Positions 1-24,018 of a DNA stretch of 64,000 nt are shown piece by piece. The notes beneath the pieces were generated by a model. The model made no database searches and was not told the origin of the DNA. It saw nothing but the letters and a program-made list of their open reading frames with translations. The stretch is from an uncultured virus (IMG/VR IMGVR_UViG_3300046007_006189). Taxonomy: Duplodnaviria > Heunggongvirae > Uroviricota > Caudoviricetes. The position numbers and the translations under genes are program-made. The stretch's first letter is position 1; each line of letters starts with the position of its first letter. Location of the stretch: the IMG/VR virus record IMGVR_UViG_3300046007_006189; one strand, 5' to 3'.

Positions 1-2536
1 TTACTCCAACAAATACTGCGCTTTCGTCTGTTGCTGCATCAAAGTCAAGCACCATTATGGAATTGCGTGTGTCAATTGTTGCGTAGTTTGCTGCTGGTGG
101 TTGATTGTCTAATGGAGTATATACTGCATATGTCTTGGATCCACCGCCACCACCTGTAGTAGAAAGAGTTATGGTTCCTGCTGAAGCAGTAAAGGTAATA
201 CCTGTACTCGCGGCAAAAGTAATGCCTCCAGTAAATCCGTTTACGCGGCTTACACCTGTGACTGCGCCAGTCTGATTGTTGAATGATGTAACGACACCAG
301 TAATATTTGTTCCAGATCCAGAGAAACCAACAGTAGAGGATACAAGTCCTGTGAAGTTTGCAGTTGTTCCTTGCAAGGTTCCTGAAAGAGTAACACCACC
401 AGAAGCACTTATGCCATTGGTAGTGCTGATATATCCTACAAATAGATTAGAAAATCCATCAAGACTGCTGTTATTCCCATATAAAGCAGCATCACCAGCC
501 ACATAACTAATTGTATTTCCGGTATCAATTGCATTTGGATCACCTATTGTGATATCTCCAAACGGACTTGATAACTGCAAAACTCCGAGAGCATCTCTTA
601 AAAATATATAAGTACTTTGGTTACTGCCATCGTAGTCTCCGATAGCAACTCTAGCAGATCCCCTGTTGTCAATATCTAACTGAGACTTTCCCCCCGCAGT
701 ATTTGTTATGGTTGCAACAGTCAGAGTATTGGCACTGTTTATATCTACATCCGAATTAAATGTTATACCACCAGAAGCACTAATCCCCGCAGTGAATCTT
801 GTAAGTGCGCTGAAAGTTCCTCCTGCTGAACTAATACCATTTGTAAAACTTTGAAGAGGACCAAATGTATTTGCCGTTCCTGTGGTCACCCCTGTAACAG
901 CTCCCGTCAGACCATTAAAACTCAACACCCCAGTATTTGAAACTGTCAGAGTGTTTCCCGAGACAGATAGATCGATTCCAGAACCATTAGTTAAACCTAC
1001 TGGTCCAGTAAGACCTCTCACGGAACTTACAACATTTTTAGTAAGTGCTAATGTGCCGGTATCTGTCGGAAATGTTATTGTAGTATTAGATCCACCAGCA
1101 AGACCCGCAGTCCATCGCTGACTTCCAACATCTATGCCAGTATCAAAATTAAATGTTACTCCGCTTCCACCATATTCAGTCAAGTAACTACTGCCAAGTG
1201 ATCCAGAACCTTCTATTGATTGGGTTTGATTGAAAGTGTTTGCTGCATTTGTTTTCGCAACATTTGTAATAGCCCCAGTACCACCATCAATACTCAATAC
1301 TCCAGTATTACTGAAGGTCATAGTCTGACCAGACACACTAATACCAATTCCGTTGCCGTTGGTCAAACCAATAGCACCAGTTAATCCACGCAAAGATTCA
1401 ACATATGCAGTAGCAATTGGAGATGAAAATACAATAAACAAAACTTGATGGTTGTTTGAAAATCCTGATGTCCCGGTTCCAGCAGAAGTAATTCCAGTTA
1501 CTGGAATACTCGTATAATCATTTAAAATTACTGTTGGAGCGGAATTAATTCTCCAAGTTTGGTAATTATTTGAATCACTGGCATCTTGAATTATTAAATT
1601 ATCATTTTGCTTGAGCAATGAAAGAAATATGTCAATGTCATCCCCATTGTTATCTAAATGGTCAAGATATAGTATTGTTGAACTAGTTTGGGTGGCATTA
1701 TTATATCTTATTTCACCATTTCCAGTAGGTGGAGTCTGGGTTGTCGTATGAACTTTATAACTGTAATAATTTGAAGATTGTCCTGGTTCACCTTGTGCAC
1801 CAGTAGCACCAGTGTTTCCCTGAATACCTTGAGAACCAGTAGCACCAGTAGCACCTGTAGATCCAGTAGCACCTGTTACACCTTGAGAACCAGTAGCACC
1901 AGTAGCACCAGTGTTTCCCTGAATACCTTGAGAACCAGTAGCACCAGTAGCACCAGTGTTTCCCTGAATACCTTGAGAACCAGTAGCACCAGTAGCACCT
2001 GTAGATCCAGTAGCACCTGTTACACCTTGAGAACCAGTAGCACCAGTAGCACCAGTGTTTCCCTGAATACCTTGAGAACCAGTAGCACCAGTAGCACCAG
2101 TAGCACCAGTGTTTCCCTGAATACCTTGAGAACCAGTAGCACCAGTAGCACCTGTAGATCCAGTAGCACCTGTTACACCTTGAGAACCAGTAGCACCAGT
2201 AGCACCTGTAGATCCAGTAGCACCTGTTACACCTTGAGAACCAGTAGCACCAGTGACACCATTGATTCCATTGTTACCAGTAGCACCAGTAGCACCAGTT
2301 GCTCCGGTTGTTCCACTCAGCACTGCCGCAGAAATTGTTAGTGTATTTCCTGATGCAGAAATTGTTATATTAGAACCAGCCGATATACCAACAGGACCAG
2401 TAACTCCGTTTAACGATTGAACATAATTACTACTAATATCTTTTGCTTTCCAACCATAACCATCATATATCCATTCGTTTGTGGATATGGAATGTGTTGT
2501 ACCTATAGATGGATTTATTGGAAAATCAACAGGCAT
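1..2536 (-). CDS. Collagen-like tail fibre/virion fibre protein, partial (runs off the left edge)
   Basis: Absent from the ORF track because it has no stop in the window. ATG at 2536 gives [29 protein letters not shown]. It contains a long Gly-X-Y tract ([12 protein letters not shown]...) and VxSxNGLTGAV fibre repeats, and the same frame reads ...[36 protein letters not shown] at the left edge. Confidence 0.85.
1029..1309. repeat. ~280-bp dispersed repeat shared with 7094-7374 (fibre module duplication)
   Basis: Aligns by eye without gaps, e.g. acaacatttttagtaagtgcta..gtgccggtatctgtcggaaatgttattgtagtattagatccacca and ttgattgggtttgattgaaagtgtttgctgcatttgtt occur in both copies. Confidence 0.9.
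1785..2320 (-). repeat. Collagen-like Gly-X-Y tandem repeat ([18 protein letters not shown] triplets)
   Basis: Tandem 9-nt units (ccagtagca, ccttgagaa, ccctgaata) arranged in higher-order blocks. Confidence 0.95.
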
Positions 2537-2543
2537 TTTAATT

Positions 2544-5438
2544 TCACCAGAACTTCAAAGTTCTCCACATTTCCTGACCAGTATGACGCATGACGTACAA
2601 ATATGTCAAGCCATCAACAGTTTTTACAAGTTCAAATTTATTGCTGAGGGTTGCGGTGCTATGAGCATATGGAATAGATGCTGCTGTTTCTACTTGGAAT
2701 GTAGAAAGGTCTAGTTCATAAATACGGTTTGTAGCATCTTTGGTGAAGTAATACGAATCAACTCCGTCATAGACATACATAGAACCCGTAGTCAAAGTAG
2801 CTGTAATTGGTGTAATGAATGGCGTGAGTTCCCAAGTTGATGTTGGGATGTCAAATATATCAAAGATATTTGATGCACCGCCACGGGGAGAAATCAACCA
2901 TCTTCCCCTTTTATCTACATCGGAAAGACCAAACAGCCATTTTATATCAATACCTGTGCTTCTTGCTGGAATTTCATAAATTGCATAGAATGTATCTGTG
3001 GCGTTGGAAGTTAATGTAGGTACAGTAATTACTGTTGCAGTATTTGATGTTACTGAAACTTCTACTGTTGCTGTACCAGCAGAAGAAGAAGCGGTTCCAG
3101 CAATATAACGAATTCTTTTTCCTGCCAGATAGTTTGTTGGGAAATTTTTATTTGCATCAGTAACAGTTGTTGTTCCTCCACCAGTAGTTACTATTCCATA
3201 CGAGTCCATAATCTCATACTTTGAAGTTGCATCTGGTGTTGCGACGTTCCAAGAAGCCACGGTTAGAGTAGTTGCAGTATTAGAAGTAATTACAACATCA
3301 TTTCCTTCTCCCGTTCCTGAAACAACTCTAACACGGCAGTTTTGATATTGATTATTTCTCCAATTTTTGGTTGTGTCAACCAAAGTTGTCGATGATCCTG
3401 AAGTCGCCCAACCCAACGGAGCTCTTTCTGCTACTTTATCAATGCACATTGCACCGAATGGTCGTGCTTCTTGAATCACATAACGAGATGTTCCGTTTGC
3501 CATCACTGAAATTACAGACGACAAAGTTAATGTTGTTGCAGTGTTTGCGGTGATACGTCTAGCACCCGCGTTAGTTGGTGACGTTCCCGCTGTTTGCACG
3601 AATACCACTCTACCAACATGCTCGTTTGTATTCCAGTTTTGAGTAGCATCCACAATCAAAGATGTGGTGAGTGAGCTGGCCGCAGTTGGGCTTTGGGTTG
3701 CGGCAGAATTTGCAGCAATGCTAAATGCGGTTTGAGAATTAGTTCCTATTACTGCAAATGTATCATTGAAAGTTGTTTCTGTGGCACAACCAGCAATAAT
3801 AACAGATTCACCATGCCTGAAATCGTGATTTACTGCTGAAACTACGTTTCCTACTTTTCCAACAGTAAGAGTTATTGTAAGACCAGAACCAGAACCACCT
3901 GTGGTGTTCGATGAACCGTTTGAATAACCGCTTCCTGATGCAGCAAGTTGCAAAGATGTTACTGCACCACCAGCAGTAACTCCGGTAACATATACCTGAC
4001 CGTTTGTTCCTGTGGTGGAACATGTAACTAAATCTCCAGCAACATAGTTTGTTCCTGCTGCATTTACTGCAACGCTCAAAATACCGCTTGCGCTGTATGT
4101 TATGCTAGTTATTCCATATCCTTCATGTGGTGGACCGTAAGATAATGTGATACCAGAAGCAGGGGTTGCAGAAATTTGTCTAGCAACACCAGTATCTACT
4201 ATTGGCGCACTTGCCCACAAGTCGTGTTCAACCGAATATTGATACATTGCTGAGGAAGCGTTTCCAGCAAGCCACATTTTGTCGGTATCTCCGTATATTG
4301 CATAACCCGATGTGTTATCTGGAGTAATATCCCATTTCTTTTCAACATAAAAAGTATCTGCTGAGTTTGCAGTAATTCTTCTTCGTTGTCCAATTCCTTT
4401 ACCAGAAACAATTCTCAACTGATAATTTGTATAACGGTCGTATGCATAAGTTGCTCCGCTTTGAACCAATGTTTTTGCAGCAGCAGAAGAAGCAGTCACA
4501 CCGCTAATAAATACTCCACCAGCCTCACCTGTTCTGTCAATTGCAAAATCCGTACCTAAGGCAGCAGCATGATGCATTGGACCGGAAGGAGTTTTTGTGA
4601 ACCAAGAGTCCAAAAGAATATCATAATATTGAAACGCAGCAAATGGTGTGGATGCTGCGGCTGTCATCAGCCAAATTCCACCCGTCATTATTTGGTATAT
4701 TGAACTTGCATCAGGAGTAACTGTCCAAGCCGAATCTACAGTTAATTCACTGGATTCAATTACAAAGTTAGTTTGCGAACCCGCAGTTGTTACTGGTACT
4801 GCAAAGGGGGTTACGGCAGAAAAACCAGTATTGTTAAAAGAATCTACTGCTTGATGGTTGGTATCAGAGAATGTCAGAGTGGTTGTATCATTGTAAAGAA
4901 TTTTTCTTACTTGAGACTGACCAGTGCTGAATATCAAACGACAGTTGTAGCCGTCCCATTGATTAACTCTCCATTTTTTGGTAGAGTCACCGATTTGAGT
5001 TGCGCTAGCAGTTGTTGCCAAACCATTGTCGTGAATCACTCCATCCGAGCAAGCAGTAATTGTTCTTTCTTGTCCTGCACCAGTACCATAAAGAATTCTA
5101 ATTTTACTTCCTACACAAACATTTCCCAGTCTACCAAGTCCACCAATTGTTATCGTGGTGGAAGTTGCACTGATTGTATGTCCTCTGCTTCCAGAGAATG
5201 CAGCATATTTTCCGGTAACGGCAGTGGCAGGAGCAATATTTGGTGCAGCACATTCTTGCCATGAATCACTATAGGTATCATATCGCCACATTGCCTGACC
5301 GACAATGTAGTACATATATCGCGCACTGGCATCAGAGGACAACAAAGTAGCGGTGCTGCTTGTTGTTGTAGGAGCAAAACGCATCCATTCGAATACTGGT
5401 TGATCAACTTGTGGTTTTAAAAGATTTGTAACTGGCAT
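2544..5438 (-). CDS. Large Ser/Thr-rich virion/tail-associated protein with internal repeats and Kelch-like blades
   Basis: 964-aa ORF with about six repeats like R-I-x-x-G-x-G-x-G-Q-x-R-x-I-T-x-N-T-A-T-T-L-T and blade-like motifs ([35 protein letters not shown]); lies among fibre genes. Confidence 0.6.
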
Positions 5439-5450
5439 AATATTTTCCTA

Positions 5451-6077
5451 TTAAGTGAATGATAATTTAGAACGAATTGCTTGAGCATAACAAGCTTGAG
5501 CATCATTGGCTACACGCCATAATTGATGAAGTGGACCTTCTGAAACCAATCCTACTGCCTGTGATGTCGATAGAGTATATGGATTTACTGCTGAGTTGTT
5601 GAATGTTGTAGCGGTTACAGCATTGTTCACATTGGCTGTGGCTGTAACTGTTCCCGAAACAGGAATAGAGGCGTTAACTTCGGTTGGTGTTGCCAAGTTG
5701 GTTCCGATTGCTTCTATTACGACCTTTTGACGTAGACGGGAATCGACAACAGCATTGCTTTCCAAAAGTTTGTTCATGCGGCGAAGAAGTGTTGCTAGGC
5801 TTTCTTCATAACTCTCAACATCAATGTAAATTTGCAGAACATCTGTAGCACTCATGGATGTGGTGTCGTAATCAAGAGTCAGCACATTGTTGACGAAACT
5901 TACGGCGCCGGTGGTTGAACTTGCAAAATTGTAAATAATGGTGTTAGCGGTTACATTGGTAATCAAAAGAATATTAGCCAATGTAACTTGCTGAGACAGT
6001 CCTGAAAAGGTTACTGTCTTTGCAGTTGGGTCAAAAGTGTAAGTTCCCGATGTATCTTGTCCTAATAATTTCTTCAT
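5451..6077 (-). CDS. Putative virion structural protein (YTFDxxAKT...ILLITNVTxNxIIYNFA domain)
   Basis: 208-aa ORF with AGGGGA RBS, preceded by a TATAAATA late promoter; the N-terminal domain resembles ones common in aquatic phage tail/baseplate proteins. Confidence 0.55.
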   Translation of the reverse strand: MKKLLGQDTSGTYTFDPTAKTVTFSGLSQQVTLANILLITNVTANTIIYNFASSTTGAVSFVNNVLTLDYDTTSMSATDVLQIYIDVESYEESLATLLRRMNKLLESNAVVDSRLRQKVVIEAIGTNLATPTEVNASIPVSGTVTATANVNNAVTATTFNNSAVNPYTLSTSQAVGLVSEGPLHQLWRVANDAQACYAQAIRSKLSFT

Positions 6078-6090
6078 TTAATATCCCCTA

Positions 6091-6098
6091 TATTTATA
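6091..6098 (-). promoter_or_regulatory. T4-type late promoter TATAAATA
   Basis: Exact gp55 consensus on the minus strand, overlapping the upstream stop codon, just 5' of an RBS. Confidence 0.7.
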
Positions 6099-8664
6099 GT
6101 ACGGTTGCCATAGCGATTACGAATGCTTCGTTTACTCCTCCACCACCAGAAGAGTCAATTGTAATTGTATTACCGGATGGAACTAGTGTAATATTTGTAC
6201 CGGCTGCTAGGGTTACACCACCTGAAAGACCATTTATAGTTTTAACAATATTGGTAAGATTGGTTCCTGATCCAGAGAACCCAACAGTAGAGGATACAAG
6301 ACCTGTGAAGTTTGCAGTTGTTCCCTGTAATGTTCCTGCAAGAGTCACACCACCCGAAGCTGAAATACCAGCACTAAAGGTTTGCAATGCAATAAAGTTA
6401 TTTGCAGTTCCCGTGGTTACTCCAGTTACAGGACTCCATTCTAGAATAGAATTATTACCATCATGTGACTTTACTCTAAGAACATCTCCTGTTACGCCAC
6501 TAGATTGAGGAAACACAAAGTTTCCATCCACATAAACTACTGGATCTCCTTCTGGATTATCAGTTCTTGTCCATCCAAACTCTATTTTACCTGTATCATT
6601 ATCACCCGCCGTATCCTCAGTAACACTAATATAAGTATTACGATCAGTGACACCACCACTTCCAATTTTAATCTGTTTTCCGGTTGCGTGAGATATGCGT
6701 AGACCCGCTGATCCACTTGCGGTAACAACTTGAGTTGAACCTCCATGACCAGTCCACTTCATGTCAATGTTATTATTAAATTCTACTTTGTTTGAGAATG
6801 TTGCTCCGCCACCAACAAACAAATTTGCGTTTTCTATTTGTACTATATTTGCACTATCATCAATAGTAAGTTTAGAACCGTTGCCCTCAAGATTAATATC
6901 GCCAAATGTAATAAGTGCAGAATCTGCCTTGAATTCAACTCCTTGAGTAAATCCCGAAATAGTTACATTACCTGTGAATGTTACACCACCAGATGCAGAA
7001 ATTCCTGTTGTGAAAGATTGAAGGGCAACAAAGGTATTTGCGGTTCCTGTTGTTACACCGCTAACTGCTCCAGTAAGTCCGTTAAAAGATGATACAACAT
7101 TTTTAGTAAGTGCTACTGTGCCGGTATCTGTCGGAAATGTTATTGTAGTATTAGATCCACCATCAAGACCAGCAGACCATCGCTGACTTGCAACATCTAT
7201 GCCAGTATCAAAATTAATTGTTATTCCACTTCCACCATATTCAGCCAAGTAACTACTGCTAAATGGTCCAGAACCTTGTATTGATTGGGTTTGATTGAAA
7301 GTGTTTGCTGCATTTGTTCTTGCAACATTTGTAATAGCTCCAGTGCTACCGTCAATACTCAGTACCCCAGTATTCGAAACAGTCAGAGTGTTTCCAGAAA
7401 CTGATAGACCGATTCCAGAACCGTTGGTTATGCCGACAGCACCAGTAAGACCATTTATTCTGCTGACTCCAACAATTGCTCCAGTAGAACCATTAAAACT
7501 TTGAACACCAGTATTAGTAATAGTGACAGAACCAGTAGCACCCGACACAGATATGCCTGTTCCGCCCACAGCAGCCGACACGCCTTGAATTGCGCCTGTG
7601 CGTCCATTGATAGAAGTTACTGCACCACTTAAAATTTCACTAATTGCAAGATCGGAATCAATTTGCAAATTACTATCAAGTATCAGTTTTTTACCAATTA
7701 TGGAACTCGTATCAGTATATTCAATTTCGGGTATTTGTACATTCGATGTGATAACATCATTTACCGTAGCAGTATACATGGTTGCGGTTGAACCAAAAGT
7801 TTGCAACAGTAATATATCACTCGGAGCAACTGTAGCAATAGAGGGGAAAGTTAGTCCACCCCTTCTGAAATTTACAGAAAAGGAAATTCCATTGCTACTC
7901 ACCGAGTGTGTAATTCCTCTGCCACCTATGAATGTAACCGCACCCGTCAACCCGTTAGCCGAAGACACACCCTGTACTGCACCTGTAAGTTCGTTGAATG
8001 AATAAACACCAGTATTTGAAACAGTCAGAGTCTTTCCAGAAACAGACACACCAATTCCAGAGTCGTTGATAATGTCAACAGCACCAGTAAGACCACGAAT
8101 TGAAATTACATAATCACCTACTGGACCAGTTGCTCCAGTATTACCAGTATTACCAGTATTACCCTGAATTCCCTGAATACCTTGAATACCTTGAATACCT
8201 TGGATTCCTTGAGGACCGGTTTCTCCAGTATTACCAGTATTACCTTGAATACCTTGAATACCTTGGATTCCTTGAGGACCGGTTTCTCCAGTATTACCAG
8301 TATTACCTGTATTACCTTGAATACCTTGGATTCCTTGAGGACCAGTTTCTCCAGTATTACCAGTATTACCTTGAATACCTTGGATTCCCTGAATACCTTG
8401 AATACCTTGGATACCTTGAGAACCAGTTTCTCCAGTATTACCCTGAATACCCTGAATACCTTGGATTCCTTGAGGACCAGTTTCTCCAGTAGCACCAGTT
8501 GTACCTTTTGGTCCCGGAACAGATGGTCCTAATGGGGTGGTAGCAAGAACTGTCGTTTTTTCCGTTGTTGCAATTAAATTAGTTGGATTTGCATACGAAG
8601 TTACAGTTATATCAGCAGACTGAACTGAATTTACTATAATATTATTGACAGTTGGGTCTGACAT
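6094..8664 (-). CDS. Collagen-like tail fibre protein
   Basis: 856 aa with a Gly-X-Y tract (GETGPQGIQGNT) followed by repeated VxSxNGxTGAV and TNTGV fibre motifs. Confidence 0.8.
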   Translation of the reverse strand: MSDPTVNNIIVNSVQSADITVTSYANPTNLIATTEKTTVLATTPLGPSVPGPKGTTGATGETGPQGIQGIQGIQGNTGETGSQGIQGIQGIQGIQGIQGNTGNTGETGPQGIQGIQGNTGNTGNTGETGPQGIQGIQGIQGNTGNTGETGPQGIQGIQGIQGIQGIQGNTGNTGNTGATGPVGDYVISIRGLTGAVDIINDSGIGVSVSGKTLTVSNTGVYSFNELTGAVQGVSSANGLTGAVTFIGGRGITHSVSSNGISFSVNFRRGGLTFPSIATVAPSDILLLQTFGSTATMYTATVNDVITSNVQIPEIEYTDTSSIIGKKLILDSNLQIDSDLAISEILSGAVTSINGRTGAIQGVSAAVGGTGISVSGATGSVTITNTGVQSFNGSTGAIVGVSRINGLTGAVGITNGSGIGLSVSGNTLTVSNTGVLSIDGSTGAITNVARTNAANTFNQTQSIQGSGPFSSSYLAEYGGSGITINFDTGIDVASQRWSAGLDGGSNTTITFPTDTGTVALTKNVVSSFNGLTGAVSGVTTGTANTFVALQSFTTGISASGGVTFTGNVTISGFTQGVEFKADSALITFGDINLEGNGSKLTIDDSANIVQIENANLFVGGGATFSNKVEFNNNIDMKWTGHGGSTQVVTASGSAGLRISHATGKQIKIGSGGVTDRNTYISVTEDTAGDNDTGKIEFGWTRTDNPEGDPVVYVDGNFVFPQSSGVTGDVLRVKSHDGNNSILEWSPVTGVTTGTANNFIALQTFSAGISASGGVTLAGTLQGTTANFTGLVSSTVGFSGSGTNLTNIVKTINGLSGGVTLAAGTNITLVPSGNTITIDSSGGGGVNEAFVIAMATVL
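8125..8510 (-). repeat. Collagen-like Gly-X-Y tandem repeat (GIQ/GNT/GET/GPQ)
   Basis: Tandem 9-nt units (ccttgaata, ccagtatta). Confidence 0.95.
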
Positions 8665-8667
8665 TTG

Positions 8668-9099: not shown

Positions 9100-9111
9100 T
9101 TATATCTTCCT

Positions 9112-12787: not shown

Positions 12788-13094
12788 TCACGGGTTTCCC
12801 TATCCAATCTGAACCGACAATCATTATATCTGGTTCAAATTTTTTTACAAGGGATTTTAATTGATTATCATTCTCAAAAACATAAACTGCATCAACATAA
12901 CGAAGTGCAAGTAACATTTCCTTACGAACTTCACTAGTATTTATGGGTCGCAAATCACCTTTTTTCTCTTTGACTCGTTCGTCTGAATCAATACCAACAA
13001 CTACTTTGTCACCCAGTGATTTTGCATATTTCAACATTTCTATATGACCGGGATGTAATATATCAAAACAACCATTAGTAAATACTATTTTCAT
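12687..13094 (-). CDS. RfaE domain II / HldC-like nucleotidyltransferase
   Basis: FTNGCFDILHPGH, DSD..V..KG..RP, GSDW, YSTS. Confidence 0.9.
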   Translation of the reverse strand: MKIVFTNGCFDILHPGHIEMLKYAKSLGDKVVVGIDSDERVKEKKGDLRPINTSEVRKEMLLALRYVDAVYVFENDNQLKSLVKKFEPDIMIVGSDWIGKPVIGSEHAKEVKFFERIPEYSTSKTIESIVIGGNV

Positions 13095-13714: not shown

Positions 13715-13729
13715 ATTATTTTCCTTGTT

Positions 13730-14722: not shown

Positions 14723-14724
14723 AT

Positions 14725-15951: not shown

Positions 15952-16906
15952 TTATTGATCTTTTAAAAGTTTCTATATTGTAATATGCAGTATCATTAAA
16001 ATTATAATTATTAATATTGATATTATTTAATATATCGTCTATTGACTCTTCGATACCATATATTGATTTATATTTTAAATCTTTTTCTATTTTATTTGTT
16101 GATGCTTTATAATTTCTAACATCTTGAATATTATTAATTATTAATTCTATATTCATTCCCAAACCAATTAAATGATTGTAAATTTTATTTGCTAAATCAC
16201 CAATAGTCAAATTAATACCAGATAAATTGTATATACCTGATACATTTAATTCTGCAAATATTGCTTTTTCGTATCCCTGAATTACATCTCGAATGTCAAT
16301 AAGAGGCCTCCATAAATTTGGATTATTTACCACTATTTTTTTATGAAGAATTGCATCTTTTAACATAGTATTAACAACTAAATCATATCTCATTTTAGGT
16401 GACCATCCACACACAGTGCCTTTTCTGAAAATTATTGGTCGAAACATATCATCTTGTAGAGTCATTATTCCACATTCTGATTGTAATTTTGATATACCAT
16501 ATGGATAGTTTGGTTTTATTGCGCTGTTTTCATTTAATATTTTATTTTTAGTATAACCATAAACACTACAAGAACTTGCATAAATAAATCTTCTGATACC
16601 TGCCATTTTTGTTATATAGGCTATATAAGCAGGCGCAGCTGCATTTTCAATAAAATTTAAATCCGGCCGAAACATTGCCATTGGATCATTTGCCAATCCC
16701 GCAAGAAAGATAACGGAATCAAATCCAATTAAATCCTTAGACGTTAATTTCCATAAATCTTGTTTTTGTTTTGAAATTTCAGGTAAAAGAAAATCTCCAA
16801 ACCAAAATTTATCAATTACCGATACATCATGTCCACTCGTATGTAATTGATTGGACATACGAGTACCAATATATCCAGCACCACCTATTATTAATATTTT
16901 GCTCAT
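15944..16906 (-). CDS. NAD-dependent NDP-sugar epimerase/reductase (SDR)
   Basis: GGAGYIG, LAGLANDP, ASSCSVYG, YGISK, RYDLVVN. Confidence 0.88.
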   Translation of the reverse strand: MSKILIIGGAGYIGTRMSNQLHTSGHDVSVIDKFWFGDFLLPEISKQKQDLWKLTSKDLIGFDSVIFLAGLANDPMAMFRPDLNFIENAAAPAYIAYITKMAGIRRFIYASSCSVYGYTKNKILNENSAIKPNYPYGISKLQSECGIMTLQDDMFRPIIFRKGTVCGWSPKMRYDLVVNTMLKDAILHKKIVVNNPNLWRPLIDIRDVIQGYEKAIFAELNVSGIYNLSGINLTIGDLANKIYNHLIGLGMNIELIINNIQDVRNYKASTNKIEKDLKYKSIYGIEESIDDILNNININNYNFNDTAYYNIETFKRSIND

Positions 16907-17700
16907 AATGTATAAATTAATTTTTTAAATTTTTCAATATTTTTTTGAACATATATTGGTAGATGATCTAATGTTTCTATTGAATGTAATTTTTGTTCAT
17001 CAGTTCTGCCAAAAGGATCTTCTAATTTTTCTATTCTTTCTTTAAAAAACTCTTCTGTTAAATGATTACATGTATCATGACCAAAATTAATAGTTTTTAA
17101 TTTTTGATTTTTTTCATCACCTAATGAACTATAATGCCATCCACCATAACTATGATTTTGACAATTTATTCTTGACCACAATCCATCCCCTATACAACTA
17201 TAATATATATTATTTTTCCCAAGAGATTCAAAAGTTGTAATATATGTTCCATGCCATTCAGTTTTATTAAAATCATGAAGAAAACGAGTATTCATATAAT
17301 AATAATATAAATTCATTGTTACACAAATTGGAAATTTATGATCAATTTTTATATTATTTATAATTTCACTTTTAGGAATTTCGTCTAATGCACCAATCAT
17401 GATTATGTCGTTATTCTTTGCTGCAATTAAGCCAGTTATAATATAATTCCAACAATTTATTTCATTTTGTCTAGTATTCTCGTTAAATAAATTTTCTGGT
17501 ACTTCTAATCTAATAATTTTATGATTGAATTTTTCAAATCTATCCTTATTATTAAGATAATGACATTCTTTTGGTTTATTCTGAAATGATCTTTTAGATT
17601 CGACTAAAACAAAATAATCAACTACATCATTTAATTCATTTAATCGTATTTCTAATAAATCTAATTCATTAAAAAAAGTAAAACAATCATAAACTTTCAT
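16903..17700 (-). CDS. Glycosyltransferase family 17-like (GnT-III-like)
   Basis: YDCFTFFNELDLLEIRL..L..VVDYFVLVES, LDEIP, GGWHYS. Start moved to MKVYDCF (17700), which follows an AAGGA RBS. Confidence 0.8.
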   Translation of the reverse strand: MKVYDCFTFFNELDLLEIRLNELNDVVDYFVLVESKRSFQNKPKECHYLNNKDRFEKFNHKIIRLEVPENLFNENTRQNEINCWNYIITGLIAAKNNDIIMIGALDEIPKSEIINNIKIDHKFPICVTMNLYYYYMNTRFLHDFNKTEWHGTYITTFESLGKNNIYYSCIGDGLWSRINCQNHSYGGWHYSSLGDEKNQKLKTINFGHDTCNHLTEEFFKERIEKLEDPFGRTDEQKLHSIETLDHLPIYVQKNIEKFKKLIYTL

Positions 17701-18308
17701 CAGATATTCCTTTTCAATACAGTAAGACCATTGCAATTTACAAATATTTCATGAATTTTCCAATTACTATTTGATTCTAAAAATTCTTCCAAAGCAGGCA
17801 ATAATCCAATCTTATCTTTGCTATTAGTTCCGATCCTCCCTGAATCTTCGTCGGTATATTTGTAAGATTCTGTGTCATGTAGTATTATGTATTTTTTAAC
17901 TTTATGCGAGTGTAGAGACAATTCAGTCTTAAGTTGAGTATATGAATGTAAGGTATCTATGAAAAGTAAATCAGTTTCTTCTATTTCTATATTTGTAGTG
18001 TCTCCTAAAATAAATTGATAATATACATTATTTAAACGACAATAATTTATTACGCTATTCATTCTATCACCACATTGATGGTCATTCCAATGTAATGTTC
18101 CCGAAATAAGGTTTTGCGGATCAACTATATCAATTGATATGAATTTCTTTGGTTTAGCAACAGCAAATGCAAAAGTTGATACTACCCATCGAACTCCCAT
18201 TTCTGTTATGTGGTTACATTCACTAGCATACCGTTTTAGTGTTGGCAGATGCTCATTTATATCTGATGATAAGTTACATAATTTATTGTAATATTGTTCA
18301 GTATCCAT
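17700..18308 (-). CDS. SAM-dependent methyltransferase (Methyltransf_24-like)
   Basis: SDINEHLPTL, EMGVR, DLLFIDTLH, ILHDT, NGLTVL. Confidence 0.75.
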   Translation of the reverse strand: MDTEQYYNKLCNLSSDINEHLPTLKRYASECNHITEMGVRWVVSTFAFAVAKPKKFISIDIVDPQNLISGTLHWNDHQCGDRMNSVINYCRLNNVYYQFILGDTTNIEIEETDLLFIDTLHSYTQLKTELSLHSHKVKKYIILHDTESYKYTDEDSGRIGTNSKDKIGLLPALEEFLESNSNWKIHEIFVNCNGLTVLKRNI

Positions 18309-18309
18309 A

Positions 18310-18984
18310 TTAAATTTCCTTTATTTGTTGTAACACATCTTTATTTCCATGAAATCCAAATGTATCATTTTTATAATCACTATAATCCTTTGAAAATTTA
18401 TCTGCTACTTCAACTGGTGCAAATTTCACACCATTTGAAATAAAATAATCATAGTTATCATTGCATATAAACGCATCTTCTGGTTTTTGACATTTTGGTA
18501 ATATACTTTGGGATAATTGTAATAATTTTTTAGATCTCATACTAAATCCACCATTACCAACTCTATTTAGTCCATCAAGGCCTTTTTTATTAACAATCTC
18601 TGGTAATACTCCTTTGATTTGACATGGGTATCTTCTAAAATCCCAAGTATGTCCAATATAATCGTATTTTAAAAAATCATCCAACCATAAATGAGGATTT
18701 AATATAAAACCATCCGATTGAACTATTATACAATAATCTGTATTAATATAATTATTCAATTCATGAACTATAAATTCATTATATCCTATCCACGACAATG
18801 GGGATATTGTATGATGTTTAATTTTAAAATTTTCATTATAATTTTTGGGTGAAATTAAAACACATTCTGCAAAATTGATATTTTTAGAACTTATACGCAA
18901 TGCATCATATGCATTTTTTATATTTTCTTCTTTTGTTGTTCCTTCAACACACACTAATGTTACATTTGATAATTTTAAAATCAT
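18310..18984 (-). CDS. DUF5672-like putative glycosyltransferase
   Basis: QSDGFI..W...FL.YDYIG, VGNGGFSMRSKKL, EDxFIC, FGFHG. Confidence 0.8.
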   Translation of the reverse strand: MILKLSNVTLVCVEGTTKEENIKNAYDALRISSKNINFAECVLISPKNYNENFKIKHHTISPLSWIGYNEFIVHELNNYINTDYCIIVQSDGFILNPHLWLDDFLKYDYIGHTWDFRRYPCQIKGVLPEIVNKKGLDGLNRVGNGGFSMRSKKLLQLSQSILPKCQKPEDAFICNDNYDYFISNGVKFAPVEVADKFSKDYSDYKNDTFGFHGNKDVLQQIKEI

Positions 18985-18995
18985 AAATAGTTTCT

Positions 18996-19703
18996 TTATG
19001 TCTGGTTATTTGATGTTAACGTATTTATACTTTTCCAATCAATACCAAATGATATAACGGGTTCGTGTACCGTGGTAGCAATACTCGGAATTGGAGAATA
19101 TAATCTTATATTGTTCTGATAAAGATGTCTAAAAAACAATCTATCCTCTAATCCAAATCTTTTTGCAATTGGAATTATATGAGAAATTAAATTTCTTGAT
19201 ACTGCCCAAGAACAAGTTGTACTTTCGCAGGTTCTCCAATGTTTTCCTTCATAAAAGTAAATAGATTCGTTACCTAGACAGATATCGTCATTACTAGTAT
19301 ATCGATCTGGATGATCATATCCGGTGATTAAACCAAATCTTTCAACTCCCGTATAAATGTGGTCTAAAGCATCTAGTGTATAGAGGTAATCATCTTCTGC
19401 AAAATAGATATTTCCTTCTGATATTTTTTCAGAATAATCAAGTTGAAATTGAAGAGAATTATAATTAGATCTAACTTTGTTATAAATTATGGTATAATTC
19501 AATTTTTCCATTTCATCAGAAAGTATTGATTTATCTCCATCCATTAGTATTATAATTTTTATTTGATCCTTATATTTACAATTTAAATAAGAATTATGTA
19601 AAGATTTAAAACAATTAACTTTAGAAAACCAAGAAGGTCTTCCTACTCTAGTCGGGATATTTTCCAATTCTTTATCACATGCTCGGTACAATATAGTCAA
19701 CAT
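18996..19703 (-). CDS. Putative GT-A fold glycosyltransferase
   Basis: IYFAEDDYL (DxD-like), YDHPDRY, HWRTxxSTT; lies inside the glycan island. Confidence 0.6.
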   Translation of the reverse strand: MLTILYRACDKELENIPTRVGRPSWFSKVNCFKSLHNSYLNCKYKDQIKIIILMDGDKSILSDEMEKLNYTIIYNKVRSNYNSLQFQLDYSEKISEGNIYFAEDDYLYTLDALDHIYTGVERFGLITGYDHPDRYTSNDDICLGNESIYFYEGKHWRTCESTTCSWAVSRNLISHIIPIAKRFGLEDRLFFRHLYQNNIRLYSPIPSIATTVHEPVISFGIDWKSINTLTSNNQT

Positions 19704-19706
19704 AAA

Positions 19707-20201
19707 TTAATTTTTTTCTCCCATTATCATAAATGCATTATTCAAATCGATACCGGATTTAAATACGTTTATATATCCACGATTTAACATATAGTCTTCT
19801 AATATTGATGGAGTGAATATATTGACATGCTTTCGATTGTTCCAAGGACGCCAATATTCTTGACTATAATCTGGAAGATACAAAAACAATACTCCACCTA
19901 TTTTTAATTTTGAATACCAATAATCCATCGCATCTACCCATCGATCAACGTGCTCTAGACAATGTGATGAGAAAATATAATCCAAATCAGTATATGGAAA
20001 ATTTAAAGCATGATAATTTCCTTCCAATACAGGATCAACTAATTTGGCGCCTGGAAAGGCCCACTCTTCTTTCATGCATCCTATATCAACGCCATGTCCA
20101 CTACATACATGTTTAGCAAAAGGTATAGCAAATTGCGAAGCATTTCCTTTACTTTGAAATTTTGGGTATTTTTTATTATTAAATGTTATTGTTTCAAGCA
20201 T
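19707..20201 (-). CDS. SAM-dependent methyltransferase (Methyltransf_11-like)
   Basis: GVDIGC, DYIFSSHCLEH, LKxGGVLFLYLP. Confidence 0.8.
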   Translation of the reverse strand: MLETITFNNKKYPKFQSKGNASQFAIPFAKHVCSGHGVDIGCMKEEWAFPGAKLVDPVLEGNYHALNFPYTDLDYIFSSHCLEHVDRWVDAMDYWYSKLKIGGVLFLYLPDYSQEYWRPWNNRKHVNIFTPSILEDYMLNRGYINVFKSGIDLNNAFMIMGEKN

Positions 20202-20955
20202 GAATATATTTCCACGGAATGCTGAAAAGTTCTTTAATATCTTCTTCTGTATGTGGACTTCTAGTTATACATAGAAAATTTGTTTTATTTTTGAGATTTA
20301 ATTTTTCTAAAATATACATCAATGAAGTATCTACAGTTATTATACTTTTCATATTTTCAAATACTTTACACCAATCAAACAAACTAAATCCGTCGTATAT
20401 TTTCATATGAATAAATTTAGTGTCATTAAAAGTAGAGTAAAACCTAGATAAATTTTTTCTATGAATATCTGGAGGAGTAACATATTGTTCGTTAACAAGA
20501 CAATACTCCTCGCCATCTTTTAATCCCAAAACATCATAAAATAATTCATTTTCTTTTTCGCTATTTCTATTAAAATTAAATGAATGTTTCCAAGCAAGAT
20601 AATTTAATGAACATATTTTATATTTTGCTTGCATAACTTGACGAGTAAATGGTTCAATCATATGAGAAGAATACCCCAAAGGCAAAAATAATACGGTTTC
20701 TTCATCTTTTTTAACTACTGTAATTTGTTTTCTTTCATAAAGCAATTTAAATATATCTTTATGCTCAAAATCTTCATCTGTGCATACAAAAGTAACATTA
20801 GGACCTGTTTTTAAATATTTTGTCAATTCTAGTATTGATCGTGCTACAGGCCAAATTATCTGATAACCATTGTTTTCAAATTGTTTACATATTCCTTGAC
20901 AAAAAAATATATCACCAATTCCTGCTTCTTGTTGTATTAAACATGTTTTTTTCAT
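20194..20955 (-). CDS. Putative GT-B fold glycosyltransferase
   Basis: N-terminal GIGDI motif and C-terminal FDW...I.TVDTS, reminiscent of GT9-like enzymes; island context. Confidence 0.5.
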   Translation of the reverse strand: MKKTCLIQQEAGIGDIFFCQGICKQFENNGYQIIWPVARSILELTKYLKTGPNVTFVCTDEDFEHKDIFKLLYERKQITVVKKDEETVLFLPLGYSSHMIEPFTRQVMQAKYKICSLNYLAWKHSFNFNRNSEKENELFYDVLGLKDGEEYCLVNEQYVTPPDIHRKNLSRFYSTFNDTKFIHMKIYDGFSLFDWCKVFENMKSIITVDTSLMYILEKLNLKNKTNFLCITRSPHTEEDIKELFSIPWKYIHA

Positions 20956-20956
20956 T

Positions 20957-22522
20957 TTAAACCTGTTGAGTTAATGTTTCCTTTTGTGACCAGAGATAAT
21001 GATACATAATCTCTTCAAAATTATATTCACTTCTAATCAATCCAGATGCTAATAATTTATCGCAATAGTCAGAATCCTCACCAAAGTTCTTTTCTGGATA
21101 ACCAATTTGTTTTGCAATATGCGTTTTAACCGGATTTAAATGATTAAGTGGTCTATATTGTCTGCCATTATTTTTAAAATGACCATTATTTTTATTTGCA
21201 TGATTAAACAACATTGCTGCATTATTATCAACATAATACATTCCCCAGAATCCAATACCATCATACATTCCACTATTTAATTTTCTTACTATTTTTGGAA
21301 TATAAGTTAAAGACACTACATCATCGTCATCAATAAAAGAAACATATTCACCTTTTGCTTTATTTAAACATTCGTTTCTTTTTTGACCTACTGTTTTTGT
21401 TCTATTGTCTTTATTTACTATTATTTCTATTCTATGCTTATAACTGACAGGAATAGTTGAATTTAGAATTTCTATAAGACGATTCAATTTATCTTCTCTT
21501 CCATCTACAGTTAATATGCAAATAGACCAAAGAATGTCTTCCTTTTCCATGTGGAATTTGTGTTCCGTCTTTACGATATTTTCTATTCTACTAAAGAATG
21601 ATTTTCCAAACTCTTGAGCTAATTTATAATTCTTTTCAATGTATGGTTTCATTGATTCATAAGTAGTTTCATCAATTTTATTGATTTTTTCTATAAAATC
21701 ATCAAAATTTTCAACAACAATCATTCCACGAATATCAAAAAACTCATCGATATCGGGGGCGCCCCAATAGATAGGAACAGTTTTTGTTAATAAGCAATCA
21801 ATTATTTTTTCTGTAAAATAAGAAGTTTCTTTTGTATTTTCTACTGCGATAGAAAATTGATGATCAAAAAGGTATAATTTATCATCGTCCTTTATGTGTC
21901 CATCATGTAGTGTTGGTGGATCGGAAAACGGGATAAGTTCCTGTGTGTGTGGATCCAAAAATTTCCATGTAGTTGGATGTCTATTGCTGGAATAAAATTT
22001 ATTTGGAATTTTTACTTTGTCTTTATTATTCCAAATTTTTTTCCGTAATTCGTATCCTACTTTTTGTTGTAAGCATGTTGTCAAAAAAGTTACACCAAAT
22101 TTTTTTTCTTTGATTTTATCCAAAATAGATGCATCAAAAGAACCCAAAGAATCTAAATGTGAATTTGATTTTTTATTTAACCATGTTCCTCCATATGGAA
22201 AAAATATAGCATTATCTACATTTTCTATAATATCAGGATGTGATGCTAAAATTAAATCATATTGATGAGCATTATCAATAATAACATCATTTAATTCTCT
22301 GGATTTAGAAGATGCAGGTTCATTGGAACAAATAAAAACTTTATATGCGTCTTTATTTTGAAAATCAATTGTATCTTGTCGTTTATCTTCTTTTCTTTCT
22401 CGAATACGTGGCGGAGTTCCGGACACATGCGTTAGGCCAAATCGAGTAATATGAATCTCACAAGGAAAATCTAAATTAATTTCGTCACAAAAATAATCAC
22501 CATTTTGTACAATTGCTTTCAT
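20957..22522 (-). CDS. Bifunctional glycosyltransferase: GT10-like domain fused to a GT2 domain
   Basis: FSIAVEN...YFTEKIIDC...VPIYWGAP (GT10), then GQKRN...GEYVSFIDDDD...GED (GT2). Confidence 0.85.
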   Translation of the reverse strand: MKAIVQNGDYFCDEINLDFPCEIHITRFGLTHVSGTPPRIRERKEDKRQDTIDFQNKDAYKVFICSNEPASSKSRELNDVIIDNAHQYDLILASHPDIIENVDNAIFFPYGGTWLNKKSNSHLDSLGSFDASILDKIKEKKFGVTFLTTCLQQKVGYELRKKIWNNKDKVKIPNKFYSSNRHPTTWKFLDPHTQELIPFSDPPTLHDGHIKDDDKLYLFDHQFSIAVENTKETSYFTEKIIDCLLTKTVPIYWGAPDIDEFFDIRGMIVVENFDDFIEKINKIDETTYESMKPYIEKNYKLAQEFGKSFFSRIENIVKTEHKFHMEKEDILWSICILTVDGREDKLNRLIEILNSTIPVSYKHRIEIIVNKDNRTKTVGQKRNECLNKAKGEYVSFIDDDDVVSLTYIPKIVRKLNSGMYDGIGFWGMYYVDNNAAMLFNHANKNNGHFKNNGRQYRPLNHLNPVKTHIAKQIGYPEKNFGEDSDYCDKLLASGLIRSEYNFEEIMYHYLWSQKETLTQQV

Positions 22523-22525
22523 AAT

Positions 22526-23194
22526 TTATATCCTATTTAAATTTAATTTAATTTCGCTCTCACTCATACCAACATTAGCAAATTCTTTAAGATTTTCTTC
22601 TTTAGACTTATGATCTGCTATACCCATAGTTATGTATGGTTCCATTCCCTCTGGACATTTACCAGGCCAAACACAATAATTCATCGGTAAACAACCAATC
22701 TTCAATTGATTTGCAACAAACGGTAAGACCTTAAATAATAATATCTCATGATCAAAAAGTTTTTGATTACTGACAACTGCTTCTTGACATTTGTTAATCC
22801 ATAATTTCAAAAAATCAATTACCTTTTGATTATAATTGCAGAATATGGGAGATGCTTTTGGTTGTAAAACATTTATTTGCGAAGGATCGGTCACAAAATA
22901 AGCAAAACCTAAATCTGCTTCATGTTCTAATATACGGTCAAAACCAGTAAGATCTCTATGAATTTGACTATCGATATCAATCCAGACTATTGGTTTTTTC
23001 TTTTCTTCCAACATACTTAGAATGTATTTGGGTTTACGAAGACAATTTAATCTATAATCATTTTCGGTTCTTACTTTTCTAAAATCATGTGGAAGATTTA
23101 ATCTAAAGCATTCTTCTTTTATTCTAAATGCGTGATCGCTGTAGTATGTGTAATCGCCAACATCACAATAAAAGGAAATTAATTCTGTTTTCAT
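22526..23194 (-). CDS. Putative nucleotide-diphospho-sugar transferase (GT-A)
   Basis: NCLRKP..I..ML, VWIDID (DxD), DHE, LPxxYC. Confidence 0.65.
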   Translation of the reverse strand: MKTELISFYCDVGDYTYYSDHAFRIKEECFRLNLPHDFRKVRTENDYRLNCLRKPKYILSMLEEKKKPIVWIDIDSQIHRDLTGFDRILEHEADLGFAYFVTDPSQINVLQPKASPIFCNYNQKVIDFLKLWINKCQEAVVSNQKLFDHEILLFKVLPFVANQLKIGCLPMNYCVWPGKCPEGMEPYITMGIADHKSKEENLKEFANVGMSESEIKLNLNRI

Positions 23195-24018
23195 ATTAGT
23201 TTAAAAAGAATATCATCGGCCAATTCCATATTCTTTACCCTTTCTAGATTATCAATTATTGCCGGAAGTTTACTCTTATAGAGTTCAGATGTCAAGGAAG
23301 AAAAATCAAAATCTTTAGTAAGTTCAATTATTCCTTCCTTATTGAAATAATTACCAATATCAGGAGCACCCCAATAAATAGGAATAGTTCCTGTAGCAAA
23401 ACAATCCGTTATTTTTTCAGTAAAATATGTTTCATAACTATCATTTTCTATAGTCACCGAAAACATATAATCATTCATTGCTTCAGATTTATCAGGCCAA
23501 ACGCCCGCACCGAACCGCTTGGAACCATTTGCACCGCCGTAGACATCAATTGTGTCTGAATGCTTCGATGCAATGGCATGTCTAAGTTTATGTCCAAATG
23601 TTATTATCTTAGGAGAAGCAATCATAGATGTCATTTTGCTCTTTGCGTGAATTTTATGTTCCTTTACCCAAGGAGCATTACTTCCTGCAAATGCAAATTT
23701 TATGTTTGGTGAATACTTGCACCATCTACGGTCTGATACAAAAATTGTATCATATGAGTTTATTAACCTCTCAATATTCTTCTCCCAGATATCTTCGGGA
23801 AACATCCATGCATGAAAAATAGCACGGGATTCGCATACCCATGCTATCTTCTTCTCATTTGGTTTTTTATTATAGGCAACTCCAGACGCAATTGCTTTGT
23901 CTATGAAGACTTTAATATCACAATCGTCTGTAGTCCATTCAAATGTTTTTGGTTTTAGATTTGAACAGGAAGAATATTCAATCGGAAACGGAGCACCAAT
24001 AGCTTGTATTTTTTTCAT
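23191..24018 (-). CDS. Glycosyltransferase family 10-like (alpha-1,3-fucosyltransferase fold)
   Basis: YMFSVTIEN...YFTEKITDCFATGTIPIYWGAP. Confidence 0.85.
   Translation of the reverse strand: MKKIQAIGAPFPIEYSSCSNLKPKTFEWTTDDCDIKVFIDKAIASGVAYNKKPNEKKIAWVCESRAIFHAWMFPEDIWEKNIERLINSYDTIFVSDRRWCKYSPNIKFAFAGSNAPWVKEHKIHAKSKMTSMIASPKIITFGHKLRHAIASKHSDTIDVYGGANGSKRFGAGVWPDKSEAMNDYMFSVTIENDSYETYFTEKITDCFATGTIPIYWGAPDIGNYFNKEGIIELTKDFDFSSLTSELYKSKLPAIIDNLERVKNMELADDILFKLI

Follow-up and report, generated by a model that had tools for sequence, protein, structure and literature searches.

What does a tailed phage do with a long run of sugar genes placed beside its tail fibres: does it alter the surface of its host, or its own virion? 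The question is raised by a 64,000-nucleotide stretch of DNA from an uncultured virus of the Caudoviricetes (IMG/VR record IMGVR_UViG_3300046007_006189), here called the window, in which an island of 19 open reading frames (ORFs) at 9112-24018 ends in a gene for a GT2-TPR glycosyltransferase and is followed by genes for collagen-like tail fibres. On balance, we lean slightly towards the view that the phage encodes a system for protein O-glycosylation of its own collagen-like tail fibres. From sequence, structural model and analogy it appears likely that GT2-TPR acts on these fibres; judged from the genes, the case for the rest of the island extending the fibre glycan, rather than remodelling host glycans, is evenly poised. 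An initial reading of the letters without database searches (the sequence-only reading) had likewise proposed that the phage glycosylates its own fibres or virion. The type of GT2-TPR and its linkage to collagen genes support this in part, and a role of the other 18 island genes on the fibre is no more than plausible. The enzyme on which the proposal turns is encoded by the last gene of the island:

9112-10323, minus strand: GT2-TPR, 403 amino acids (aa), candidate fibre O-glycosyltransferase (PF00535, E = 4.9e-14; fold; linkage to collagen genes).

The structural model of GT2-TPR (predicted local distance difference test, pLDDT, 90.1; predicted template-modelling score, pTM, 0.83) contains a GT-A fold and divides the protein into a GT-A domain (residues ~1-165), a helical TPR-like domain (175-372) and a disordered poly-Lys tail (380-403). 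Ten helices make up the helical domain in the model, and the families TPR_16, TPR_19 and TPR_17 match below their cut-offs. A DADD motif (D90, A91, D92 and D93) is invariant in 40 sequences. Among PDB sequences the best matches of GT2-TPR are GmaR (1.4e-9) and SunS (1.5e-7, residues 3-223). In Foldseek comparisons, SunS (1.8e-17) and ThuS (4e-15; 7msn and 7msk) align over ~390 columns with a template-modelling (TM) score of about 0.6 and are the sole solved structures to align over the whole length, teichoic-acid glycosyltransferases (wall-teichoic-acid enzymes) aligning to the GT-A half alone. Both parts of the SunS, ThuS and GmaR type are present, i.e. an N-terminal GT-A domain with a DxD-type site for metal and nucleotide sugar and a fused C-terminal helical TPR-like domain. 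By its architecture as seen in sequence and model, and not by orthology to SunS, GT2-TPR is assigned to the protein and peptide glycosyltransferases; the type named in the sequence-only reading is thereby upheld by sequence (GmaR, SunS) and by fold (SunS, ThuS). Orthology to SunS itself was rejected, the TIGR04195 equivalog model scoring 43.4 bits (residues 3-95) against a cut-off of 350, and no small Cys-rich (glycocin precursor) peptide gene was noted beside GT2-TPR in the ORF list.

The GT2-TPR family has a great many members (of 8,000 metagenomic candidates scored, 7,355 reach E 1e-5 or better, many of them 60-98% identical) and spans phages, bacteria and giant viruses. The giant-virus relatives (Indivirus ILV1, Pithovirus LCPAC302 and Harvfovirus; BFVD models) are 35-41% identical and match the fold over ~370-390 columns with a TM score of 0.84-0.87 relative to the query and a root-mean-square deviation of ~2 Å. 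Fusions to further domains occur in the family: a Flagellimonas protein carries a second GT2 domain (612 aa; L132 5998-7833) and lies beside two collagen genes, and the giant-virus proteins are longer fusions of 625-1164 aa. The poly-Lys tail (window 9112-9183) has 10 Lys among its last 25 residues and is disordered; the consensus is Lys-rich in all 40 viral sequences, and the tail falls outside the aligned part of the bacterial matches (query aligned up to about residues 361-394).

The sequence-only reading had placed GT2-TPR last in the island, followed by an adaptor gene and fibre genes, and the gene order agrees. The fibre module and its promoter motifs are as follows:

8668-9099, minus strand: adaptor-like or fibre-attachment protein, 143 aa (phrog_1084, 2.9e-19; weak phrog_3304, L-shaped tail fibre assembly, 7e-6).
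6094-8664, minus strand: collagen-like fibre protein 1, 856 aa (PF01391, 7.3e-20; tail-fibre PHROGs to 8.6e-44).
5451-6077, minus strand: virion-structural-like protein, 208 aa (phrog_5838, 4.9e-10; syntenic with the 964-aa gene in loci L012, L016 and L063).
2544-5438, minus strand: Ser/Thr-rich structural protein of the fibre module, 964 aa (no Pfam or PHROG match; 60-81% identical copies in L012, L016 and L063).
2-2536, minus strand: collagen-like fibre protein 2, cut by the window end (845 aa; PF01391, 7.1e-28; tail-fibre PHROGs; full length in L003).
9119-9126, minus strand: late-promoter motif TATAAATA, 27 nucleotides (nt) before the adaptor ATG, within the 3' end of the GT2-TPR gene.
6091-6098, minus strand: second late-promoter motif TATAAATA, 21 nt before the ATG of the 208-aa gene.

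Fibre 1 starts 448 nt past the stop codon of GT2-TPR. Its collagen domain (residues 51-185, window 8110-8514) comprises 45 uninterrupted triplets with Gln at position Y in 23 and Thr in 19, and that of fibre 2 (residues 75-254, window 1775-2314) comprises 60 triplets with Thr in 41 and Gln in 15. The earlier description of the triplets as mostly ending in Thr or Gln thus fits 42/45 and 56/60 of them, respectively, the types being GAT, GNT, GET, GST, GVT, GIQ and GSQ. Ser and Thr together make up 24% of the 964-aa protein and 20-27% across the fibre-module proteins. The 143-aa protein weakly resembles small fibre-attachment proteins, and its nearest named Atlas clusters (LtfC-like and BppU_N) are leads only. 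For the downstream side we used G001, a 41-kb viral fragment that is 99% identical over positions 1-20000 and reaches 10 kb beyond position 1; in this fragment fibre 2 (99% identical) has a complete length of 928 aa. The G001 copy of fibre 2 (L005 17770-20571) has 50 triplets compared with 60 in the window, and the repeat number is polymorphic between these near-identical phages. Directly after fibre 2 lies a gene for a 215-aa protein with a concanavalin-A-like lectin fold (PF13385, 1.6e-12; L003 3369-4016), a candidate receptor-binding or sugar-binding tip. The T4-type late-promoter word TATAAATA has ten exact matches in the window, all on the coding strand; several virion genes, as well as the 143-aa and 208-aa genes, have it 21-31 nt ahead of their starts. 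As the scans used the exact motif, they are strict, miss variants and give a hint at timing.

The proposal had been made contingent on GT2-TPR and collagen genes occurring together in relatives. Such linkage was found in 37 of 60 viral and 26 of 78 bacterial loci, and the idea withstood this check. The viral loci were taken from IMG/VR and carry a GT2-TPR homologue 50-100% identical to that of the window. In 31 of the 60, a collagen ORF on the same strand starts at most 1.5 kb downstream, usually past a homologue of the 143-aa gene, which comes after GT2-TPR in most class A loci; in a further six loci, all of one clade, the collagen ORF lies 2-10 kb downstream, and in three the downstream DNA is absent. 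No collagen ORF occurs in 445 kb upstream of the enzyme, compared with 37 loci having one in 282 kb downstream. Adjacency is kept in 9/11 clusters at 70% identity and extends to homologues of 50% identity, where in L050 the end of the GT2-TPR ORF (6298) coincides with the start of the collagen ORF. In a quick tree with SH-aLRT (Shimodaira–Hasegawa-like approximate likelihood-ratio test) support only, both exceptional arrangements are monophyletic and the adjacent arrangement forms the paraphyletic rest; judged from these sequences, adjacency is therefore probably ancestral in viruses.

The bacterial linkage is independent of the viral one. Here, the sample consisted of 78 loci from the best 80 of 538 confirmed matches, a selection that is not random, with full-length homologues 33-48% identical from Mycobacterium, Streptomyces, Chlamydiae, Polyangiaceae, Comamonadaceae, Verrucomicrobia, Flagellimonas and others. 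The 26 loci with linkage have a collagen-like ORF within 6 kb, in 21 cases within 1 kb, and in 19 of the 26 Thr occupies at least 50% of position Y in the nearest collagen. All ten bacterial collagen-like ORFs tested passed PF01391, and their surroundings are not of phage type (MacB, CrtC, RmlA and RmlC, the latter two together in Streptomyces). Five such genomes contain roughly 2-8 collagen loci per 3.6-11 Mb, and adjacency within 6 kb by chance is about 1% by our own estimate compared with 33% observed. Five loci (L071, L072, L075, L078 and L087) were left out of the collagen count, which fell from 31 to 26. These loci, from mycobacteria and one other bacterium, have long Gly-rich repeats of a PGRS-like kind, in which Gly occupies the third position, and are not true collagen.

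The remaining island genes, in order of transcription, are as follows (SDR, short-chain dehydrogenase/reductase; SAM, S-adenosylmethionine; HAD, haloacid dehalogenase):

23191-24018, minus strand: GT10-like glycosyltransferase, 275 aa (PF00852, 3.1e-8).
22526-23194, minus strand: GT-A fold glycosyltransferase without family match, 222 aa (AlphaFold2 model, pLDDT 83.5; Foldseek top match 2p6w).
20957-22522, minus strand: two-domain glycosyltransferase, 521 aa, GT10-like N-terminal and GT2 C-terminal (PF00852, 4.6e-7; PF00535, 1.5e-10; phrog_14775, 2.5e-36).
20194-20955, minus strand: 253-aa protein, GT9 (heptosyltransferase) lead only (no Pfam match; nearest named Atlas cluster GT9, 0.93, 166 shared features, a score under the tool's own comfort line).
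19707-20201, minus strand: SAM methyltransferase, 164 aa (PF13489, 2.5e-10).
18996-19703, minus strand: 235-aa protein (no match in Pfam, NCBIfam, PHROGs or PDB).
18310-18984, minus strand: DUF5672 protein, 224 aa (PF18922, 2.9e-16).
17700-18308, minus strand: 202-aa protein, possible methyltransferase, weak (PF13578, E = 0.011, under cut-off).
16903-17736, minus strand: GT17-like glycosyltransferase, 277 aa (PF04724, 1.7e-23).
15944-16906, minus strand: SDR epimerase or reductase, 320 aa (PF01370, 6.7e-24).
14725-15951, minus strand: nucleotide-sugar C-methyltransferase, 408 aa (PF08421, 2.4e-16; PF13489, 7.5e-15; PF08484, 8.9e-28).
13730-14722, minus strand: SDR, 4,6-dehydratase or epimerase-like, 330 aa (PF01370, 8.5e-48; GalE and dTDP-glucose-dehydratase models under their cut-offs).
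13091-13714, minus strand: probable methyltransferase, weak, 207 aa (PF02390, 1.2e-4, 22 bits against a cut-off of 24).
12687-13094, minus strand: HldE-domain-II-like heptose-1-phosphate nucleotidyltransferase, 135 aa (TIGR02199, 2.3e-36, under cut-off; phrog_7878, 4.4e-49).
11969-12787, minus strand: HldE-domain-I-like heptose-7-phosphate kinase (TIGR02198, 1.5e-34, under cut-off; PfkB, 1.7e-9); translation probably begins near residue 24 of the ORF as listed.
11668-11985, minus strand: HAD-IIIA phosphatase, GmhB-like, 105 aa (TIGR01689, 4.8e-13; phrog_1238, 1.6e-30).
11331-11690, minus strand: cupin, 119 aa, candidate sugar epimerase or isomerase (PF07883, 1.7e-8; WbuC cupin, E = 4.5e-4).
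10320-11327, minus strand: SDR, GDP-fucose-synthase or heptose-epimerase-like, 335 aa (PF01370, 4.3e-43; NF047922, 1.1e-31, under cut-off).

The island was described in the sequence-only reading as co-oriented, tightly packed and composed of 16 genes. The first two properties stand, all ORFs lying on the minus strand and being closely packed or overlapping, and the number is corrected to 19. Family or fold support as a glycosyltransferase was obtained for five genes with six domains (the 275-, 521-, 277- and 403-aa proteins by family and the 222-aa protein by fold), and counting the DUF5672 protein and the 253-aa protein with its GT9 lead gives seven genes; the earlier estimate of about eight genes and nine domains was near, its remainder being unverified. 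Two of the four methyltransferases proposed are firm (the 164-aa protein and the 408-aa C-methyltransferase) and two are weak, under the Pfam cut-offs (207 and 202 aa). Family searches also recovered the expected sugar-nucleotide enzymes, namely three SDRs, the cupin, the HldE-domain-I-like kinase, the HldE-domain-II-like nucleotidyltransferase and the HAD phosphatase. In the 222-aa protein, W71, D73 and D75 (W-x-D-x-D) are invariant, and its best Foldseek match is the capsid-glycosylating glycosyltransferase domain of A64R from the chlorovirus PBCV-1 (2p6w, E = 6.8e-9, TM 0.61/0.65). The unassigned island proteins matched nothing in Pfam up to E 5, save the PF13578 match of the 202-aa protein below its cut-off, and nothing among PDB sequences. 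Flippase, polymerase and initiating-transferase families gave no match among the 19 island proteins in Pfam, NCBIfam or PHROGs. In line with this, a crude Kyte–Doolittle scan, as the sequence-only reading had suggested for the island proteins, found no 19-residue window at or above 1.6 in the 24 island and fibre-module proteins or in five replication proteins. The G+C content is 26-30% in the island core and 34-42% in the flanks. Since island content differs between the window and L006 although their GT2-TPR proteins are 95% identical, the island is a swappable cassette.

The window comes from a T4-like myovirus: gp23, gp20, gp18, terminase, neck genes, UvsY and UvsW were identified in it together with replication genes (gp46/47-like, RNase H, gp45, gp44, gp62 and regA), all of them on the minus strand. 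Every gene across positions 1-33000 is on the minus strand, and the island begins after a conserved border:

24038-24433, minus strand: regA translational repressor, upstream island border (PF01818, 4.3e-43; upstream of the island or of GT2-TPR in related loci).

Transcription proceeds from regA through the 19 packed ORFs (24018 down to 9112) to the 143-aa gene and the 856-aa collagen protein, and then to the 208-aa and 964-aa proteins and the second collagen protein. In G001, the lectin-fold protein beyond fibre 2 is followed by a 155-aa protein, dUTPase, a DNA methylase-like gene, gp43 in two pieces and UvsX. Accordingly, ~30 kb of sugar and fibre genes separate regA from gene 43, which are neighbours in the T4 order 45-44-62-regA-43. 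For the major capsid protein, identity to the counterparts in cultured cyanomyoviruses does not exceed 58.7%. A DNA near-identity search of 50,697 phage records with the replication block matched only 99 nt of regA in two records, and the same search with the island gave no match.

Some neighbouring genes deserve mention in their own right. The gp43 DNA polymerase is encoded by two ORFs of 504 and 371 aa that lie ~2.7 kb apart (L003 6599-8113 and 10855-11970; in G001 past position 1), and in G001 the gap holds a SpoU-type methylase, six tRNA genes (Leu-CAA, Gln, Leu-TAA, Gly, Asn and Pro) and a metallophosphatase. A 271-aa SET-domain protein (PF00856, 4.5e-14; 32981-33796), SET being a protein lysine methyltransferase fold, is encoded between the gp46-like and gp47-like recombination nuclease genes. 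At 53667-62387 lies a VrlC-like giant structural protein of 2906 aa with at least six PKD-type domains as well as Ig-like domains; between its gene and the neck genes (49822-51565) there are three small ORFs alone and no fibre cluster.

If the island serves the fibres, the pathway could proceed as follows. The trio of HAD phosphatase, kinase and nucleotidyltransferase, whose genes are seen, would supply a nucleotide-heptose, and the dehydratase-like SDR, the C-methyltransferase and the reductase-like SDR may together yield a C-methyl-branched 6-deoxy sugar, with the further SDR and the cupin presumably belonging to the same activated-sugar set. Soluble GT2-TPR would recognise the fibre polypeptide in the cytoplasm via its helical TPR-like domain and attach the first sugar to a Ser or Thr residue, the most plausible site being Thr at position Y of Gly-X-Thr, as SgtA of C. 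difficile does on BclA3. The soluble GT10-like, GT2, GT17-like and A64R-like GT-A enzymes may then lengthen the glycan, and the methyltransferases may cap it. The adaptor, the collagen fibres and the 208-aa and 964-aa proteins, as one fibre unit, would be transcribed from a late promoter of their own and assemble, glycan-bearing, onto the virion. There, the glycan could stabilise a triple helix free of hydroxyproline, shield the fibre or take part in adsorption. With the island swapped between near-identical phages, such a glycan would be strain-specific.

Several observations weigh against this reading of the locus. No cultured relative of the lineage was found, the best GT2-TPR match among the 50,697 phage records being 37.6% identical. 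The viral linkage is largely inherited synteny and represents few independent events. No collagen gene occurs within up to 10 kb in 20 of the 60 viral loci (class B, one clade), where the order is regA, GT2-TPR, dUTPase, gp43 and UvsX. The one class B record that is long enough (G003) has a 735-aa collagen gene ~21 kb on, past a separate sugar island, gp41, gp61 and thyX; adjacency is thus not obligatory, and the island there is not tied to GT2-TPR. Likewise, 52 of the 78 bacterial loci have no collagen within 6 kb. The Gly-X-Thr argument of the sequence-only reading holds in the window and for most bacterial collagens (19/26) and fails in distant viral clades, whose adjacent collagens are charged and Pro-rich with Thr at 0-2% of position Y, so that Gly-X-Thr is not a conserved feature in phages. 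In the window, no late motif stands directly ahead of GT2-TPR; the nearest is 188 nt upstream, within the SDR gene. As far as the motif indicates there, a separate late promoter serves the fibre unit, and GT2-TPR is the last gene of the upstream unit. In 11/59 relatives, however, TATAAATA lies 23-30 nt before the GT2-TPR start (0/20 in class B), which counts in favour of the fibre reading. Finally, the conserved poly-Lys tail could hint at a partner in the membrane or at a nucleic acid or, alternatively, at an acidic part of the fibre.

As to the sugar island of class B, it is of a second type and lies between UvsX and gp41 (L069 436-11108; G003), with an RmlA-like nucleotidyltransferase and GT7-like and GT10-like enzymes; in G003 it also holds an unassigned 369-aa ORF, an SDR and methyltransferases. 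By this position, the hyperplastic slot for sugar genes differs between clades.

A different function of the island would be to alter an envelope glycan of the host (lipopolysaccharide (LPS) O-chain, capsule or S-layer) with the lipid carrier, flippase and ligase of the host, so as to block superinfection or the adsorption of progeny to debris, in which case the fibre genes nearby would merely share a hyperplastic slot. We regard this as unlikely, if far from negligible. The HldE-type heptose pathway is classically one of the LPS core, and GT10-like and GT2 enzymes, both represented in the island, act on LPS in bacteria. Host remodelling would also suit the class B island, which is of a similar kind and sits apart from GT2-TPR, and the timing suggested by the window, where most island genes have no late-promoter motif and come after early-to-middle replication genes. 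The conserved last gene, however, is of a protein or peptide glycosyltransferase type and not an LPS type, and it is linked to collagen in phages and bacteria alike; the 222-aa glycosyltransferase, too, finds its best fold match in an enzyme for virion proteins. Moreover, neither a membrane protein nor any initiating transferase, flippase, polymerase or ligase came to light in the island in family searches and the hydrophobicity scan. The sequence-only reading had counted this lack in favour of protein glycosylation. The absence itself holds, but it loses its force as support, since host enzymes could substitute for the missing membrane steps and host remodelling is not excluded by it. A further point that counts for host remodelling and against a fibre glycan is the published interpretation: in the available sections of PMC7029224 and PMC12801897, such islands, with glycosyltransferase and rfaE-type genes in the hypervariable regions of pelagimyophages and cyanomyophages, are read as host O-chain modification.

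It is also conceivable, and in our view quite improbable, that GT2-TPR is a protein glycosyltransferase whose substrate lies outside the collagen domain (the Ser/Thr-rich 964-aa protein, other fibre parts, capsid, sheath or a host protein), the collagen neighbourhood in phages being inherited synteny. The Ser+Thr content of 20-27% throughout the fibre module, the few linkage events on the viral tree and the Thr-poor collagens of distant clades agree with such a substrate, as does class B, where GT2-TPR is retained amid replication genes and no collagen gene is close by, although the only class B record of sufficient length does carry a collagen gene further off. The strict polarity in viruses (0 upstream, 37 loci downstream) and, above all, the independent association across bacterial phyla, mostly at 1 kb or less, are hard to explain without a functional tie to collagen. 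Least credible, and in our view very improbable, is hypermodification of DNA, by which the island and GT2-TPR would glycosylate modified phage bases against restriction in the manner of T-even phages. The slot between regA and dUTPase/gp43 with DNA methylase-like genes near, and a poly-Lys tail that could bind nucleic acid, would be compatible with it. However, no hydroxymethylase, thymidylate-synthase-like or other base-modification gene was found in the 64-kb window and 10 kb beyond, the genome being incomplete. To our knowledge, there is no DNA precedent for a glycan that needs five or more glycosyltransferases, C- and O-methylation and heptose. The fold relatives of GT2-TPR act on peptides and proteins, and its bacterial homologues adjoin collagen genes and not DNA-modification genes. 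In its favour, phage glycosyltransferases that build glycans on DNA are known, as cited in the available part of PMC12619734.

Returning to glycosylation of the fibres, a broader version may be entertained with some doubt: the GT2-TPR family would be a general microbial "collagen glycosyltransferase", its phage members would prime fibres for a cassette-encoded glycan, and "LPS islands" would be virion-glycan islands. Were this so, the glycan would contain heptose, a C-methyl-branched deoxy sugar and O-methyl groups and would be strain-specific, and diversity in the arms race against hosts, grazers and defences would arise in fibre glycans as well as in the protein tips. For twenty years, the sugar islands of aquatic T4-like phages, marine and freshwater alike, have been interpreted as serving to change the host surface. 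Should their target be the phage's own fibres, instead or in addition, then host range, virion stability and recognition by hosts and grazers gain a glycan layer that annotation has missed. The pairing of GT2-TPR with collagen across kingdoms provides a concrete candidate enzyme for collagen glycosylation in bacteria, phages and possibly giant viruses.

Among known systems, Freeman et al. are said to have described virion glycosylation in mycobacteriophages in 2023. The mycobacteriophages and the chloroviruses (A64R, PDB 2p6w) resemble the present proposal in that soluble glycosyltransferases encoded by the virus act in the cytoplasm on structural proteins of that same virus. They differ in their capsid and tail-tube targets and in their enzyme families, and glycosylation is chemically demonstrated there and inferred here. 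Cyanomyophage and pelagimyophage "LPS" or cell-wall glycan islands, as far as the available sections of the literature describe them, share hypervariable soluble glycosyltransferases, SDR epimerases, rfaE-type genes and nearby collagen-repeat tail fibres with the window. According to those of PMC7029224, the host recognition cluster of these phages lies between VrlC and gp14 and is read as host O-chain modification, whereas our island and fibres lie between regA and dUTPase/gp43; assignment to that cluster was rejected because the gene order differs. Cultured cyanophages in the 50,697-record collection have no close homologue of GT2-TPR.

The solved relatives are the glycocin S-glycosyltransferases SunS and ThuS (PDB 7msn, 7msp and 7msk) and GmaR of Listeria, a flagellin O-GlcNAc transferase (PDB 22ao; PMC9638930). 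They share the two-domain build of a GT-A domain plus a helical TPR-like domain with GT2-TPR and differ in that identity is 13-19%, no glycocin precursor or flagellin gene lies near GT2-TPR and the antirepressor domain of GmaR is absent. In open-access papers and preprints, we found no description of a phage-encoded collagen-fibre glycosyltransferase. The kinds of process invoked here are already known, namely bacterial collagen O-glycosylation and virion glycosylation in mycobacteriophages and chloroviruses.

The closest precedent is SgtA of C. difficile, which the sequence-only reading had named and which agrees with the available sections of PMC7157674. According to these, SgtA (358 aa) combines a GT-A domain with four TPRs; its gene lies directly ahead of bclA3, and the enzyme places beta-O-GlcNAc on Thr, and also Ser, of the GPT repeats of BclA3. 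Like it, GT2-TPR is a soluble GT-A plus TPR enzyme of similar size (358 vs 403 aa) encoded upstream of a Gly-X-Thr collagen-like protein, and in both cases, here by inference, other enzymes add further sugars. The phage system differs from that of the spore-former in the 143-aa gene between enzyme and fibre, in the attached sugar island of 18 genes and in its triplets (GAT, GNT and GIQ vs GPT). Likened through the described architecture of SgtA, and not its sequence, the predicted action of GT2-TPR on the phage fibres parallels that of SgtA on BclA3.

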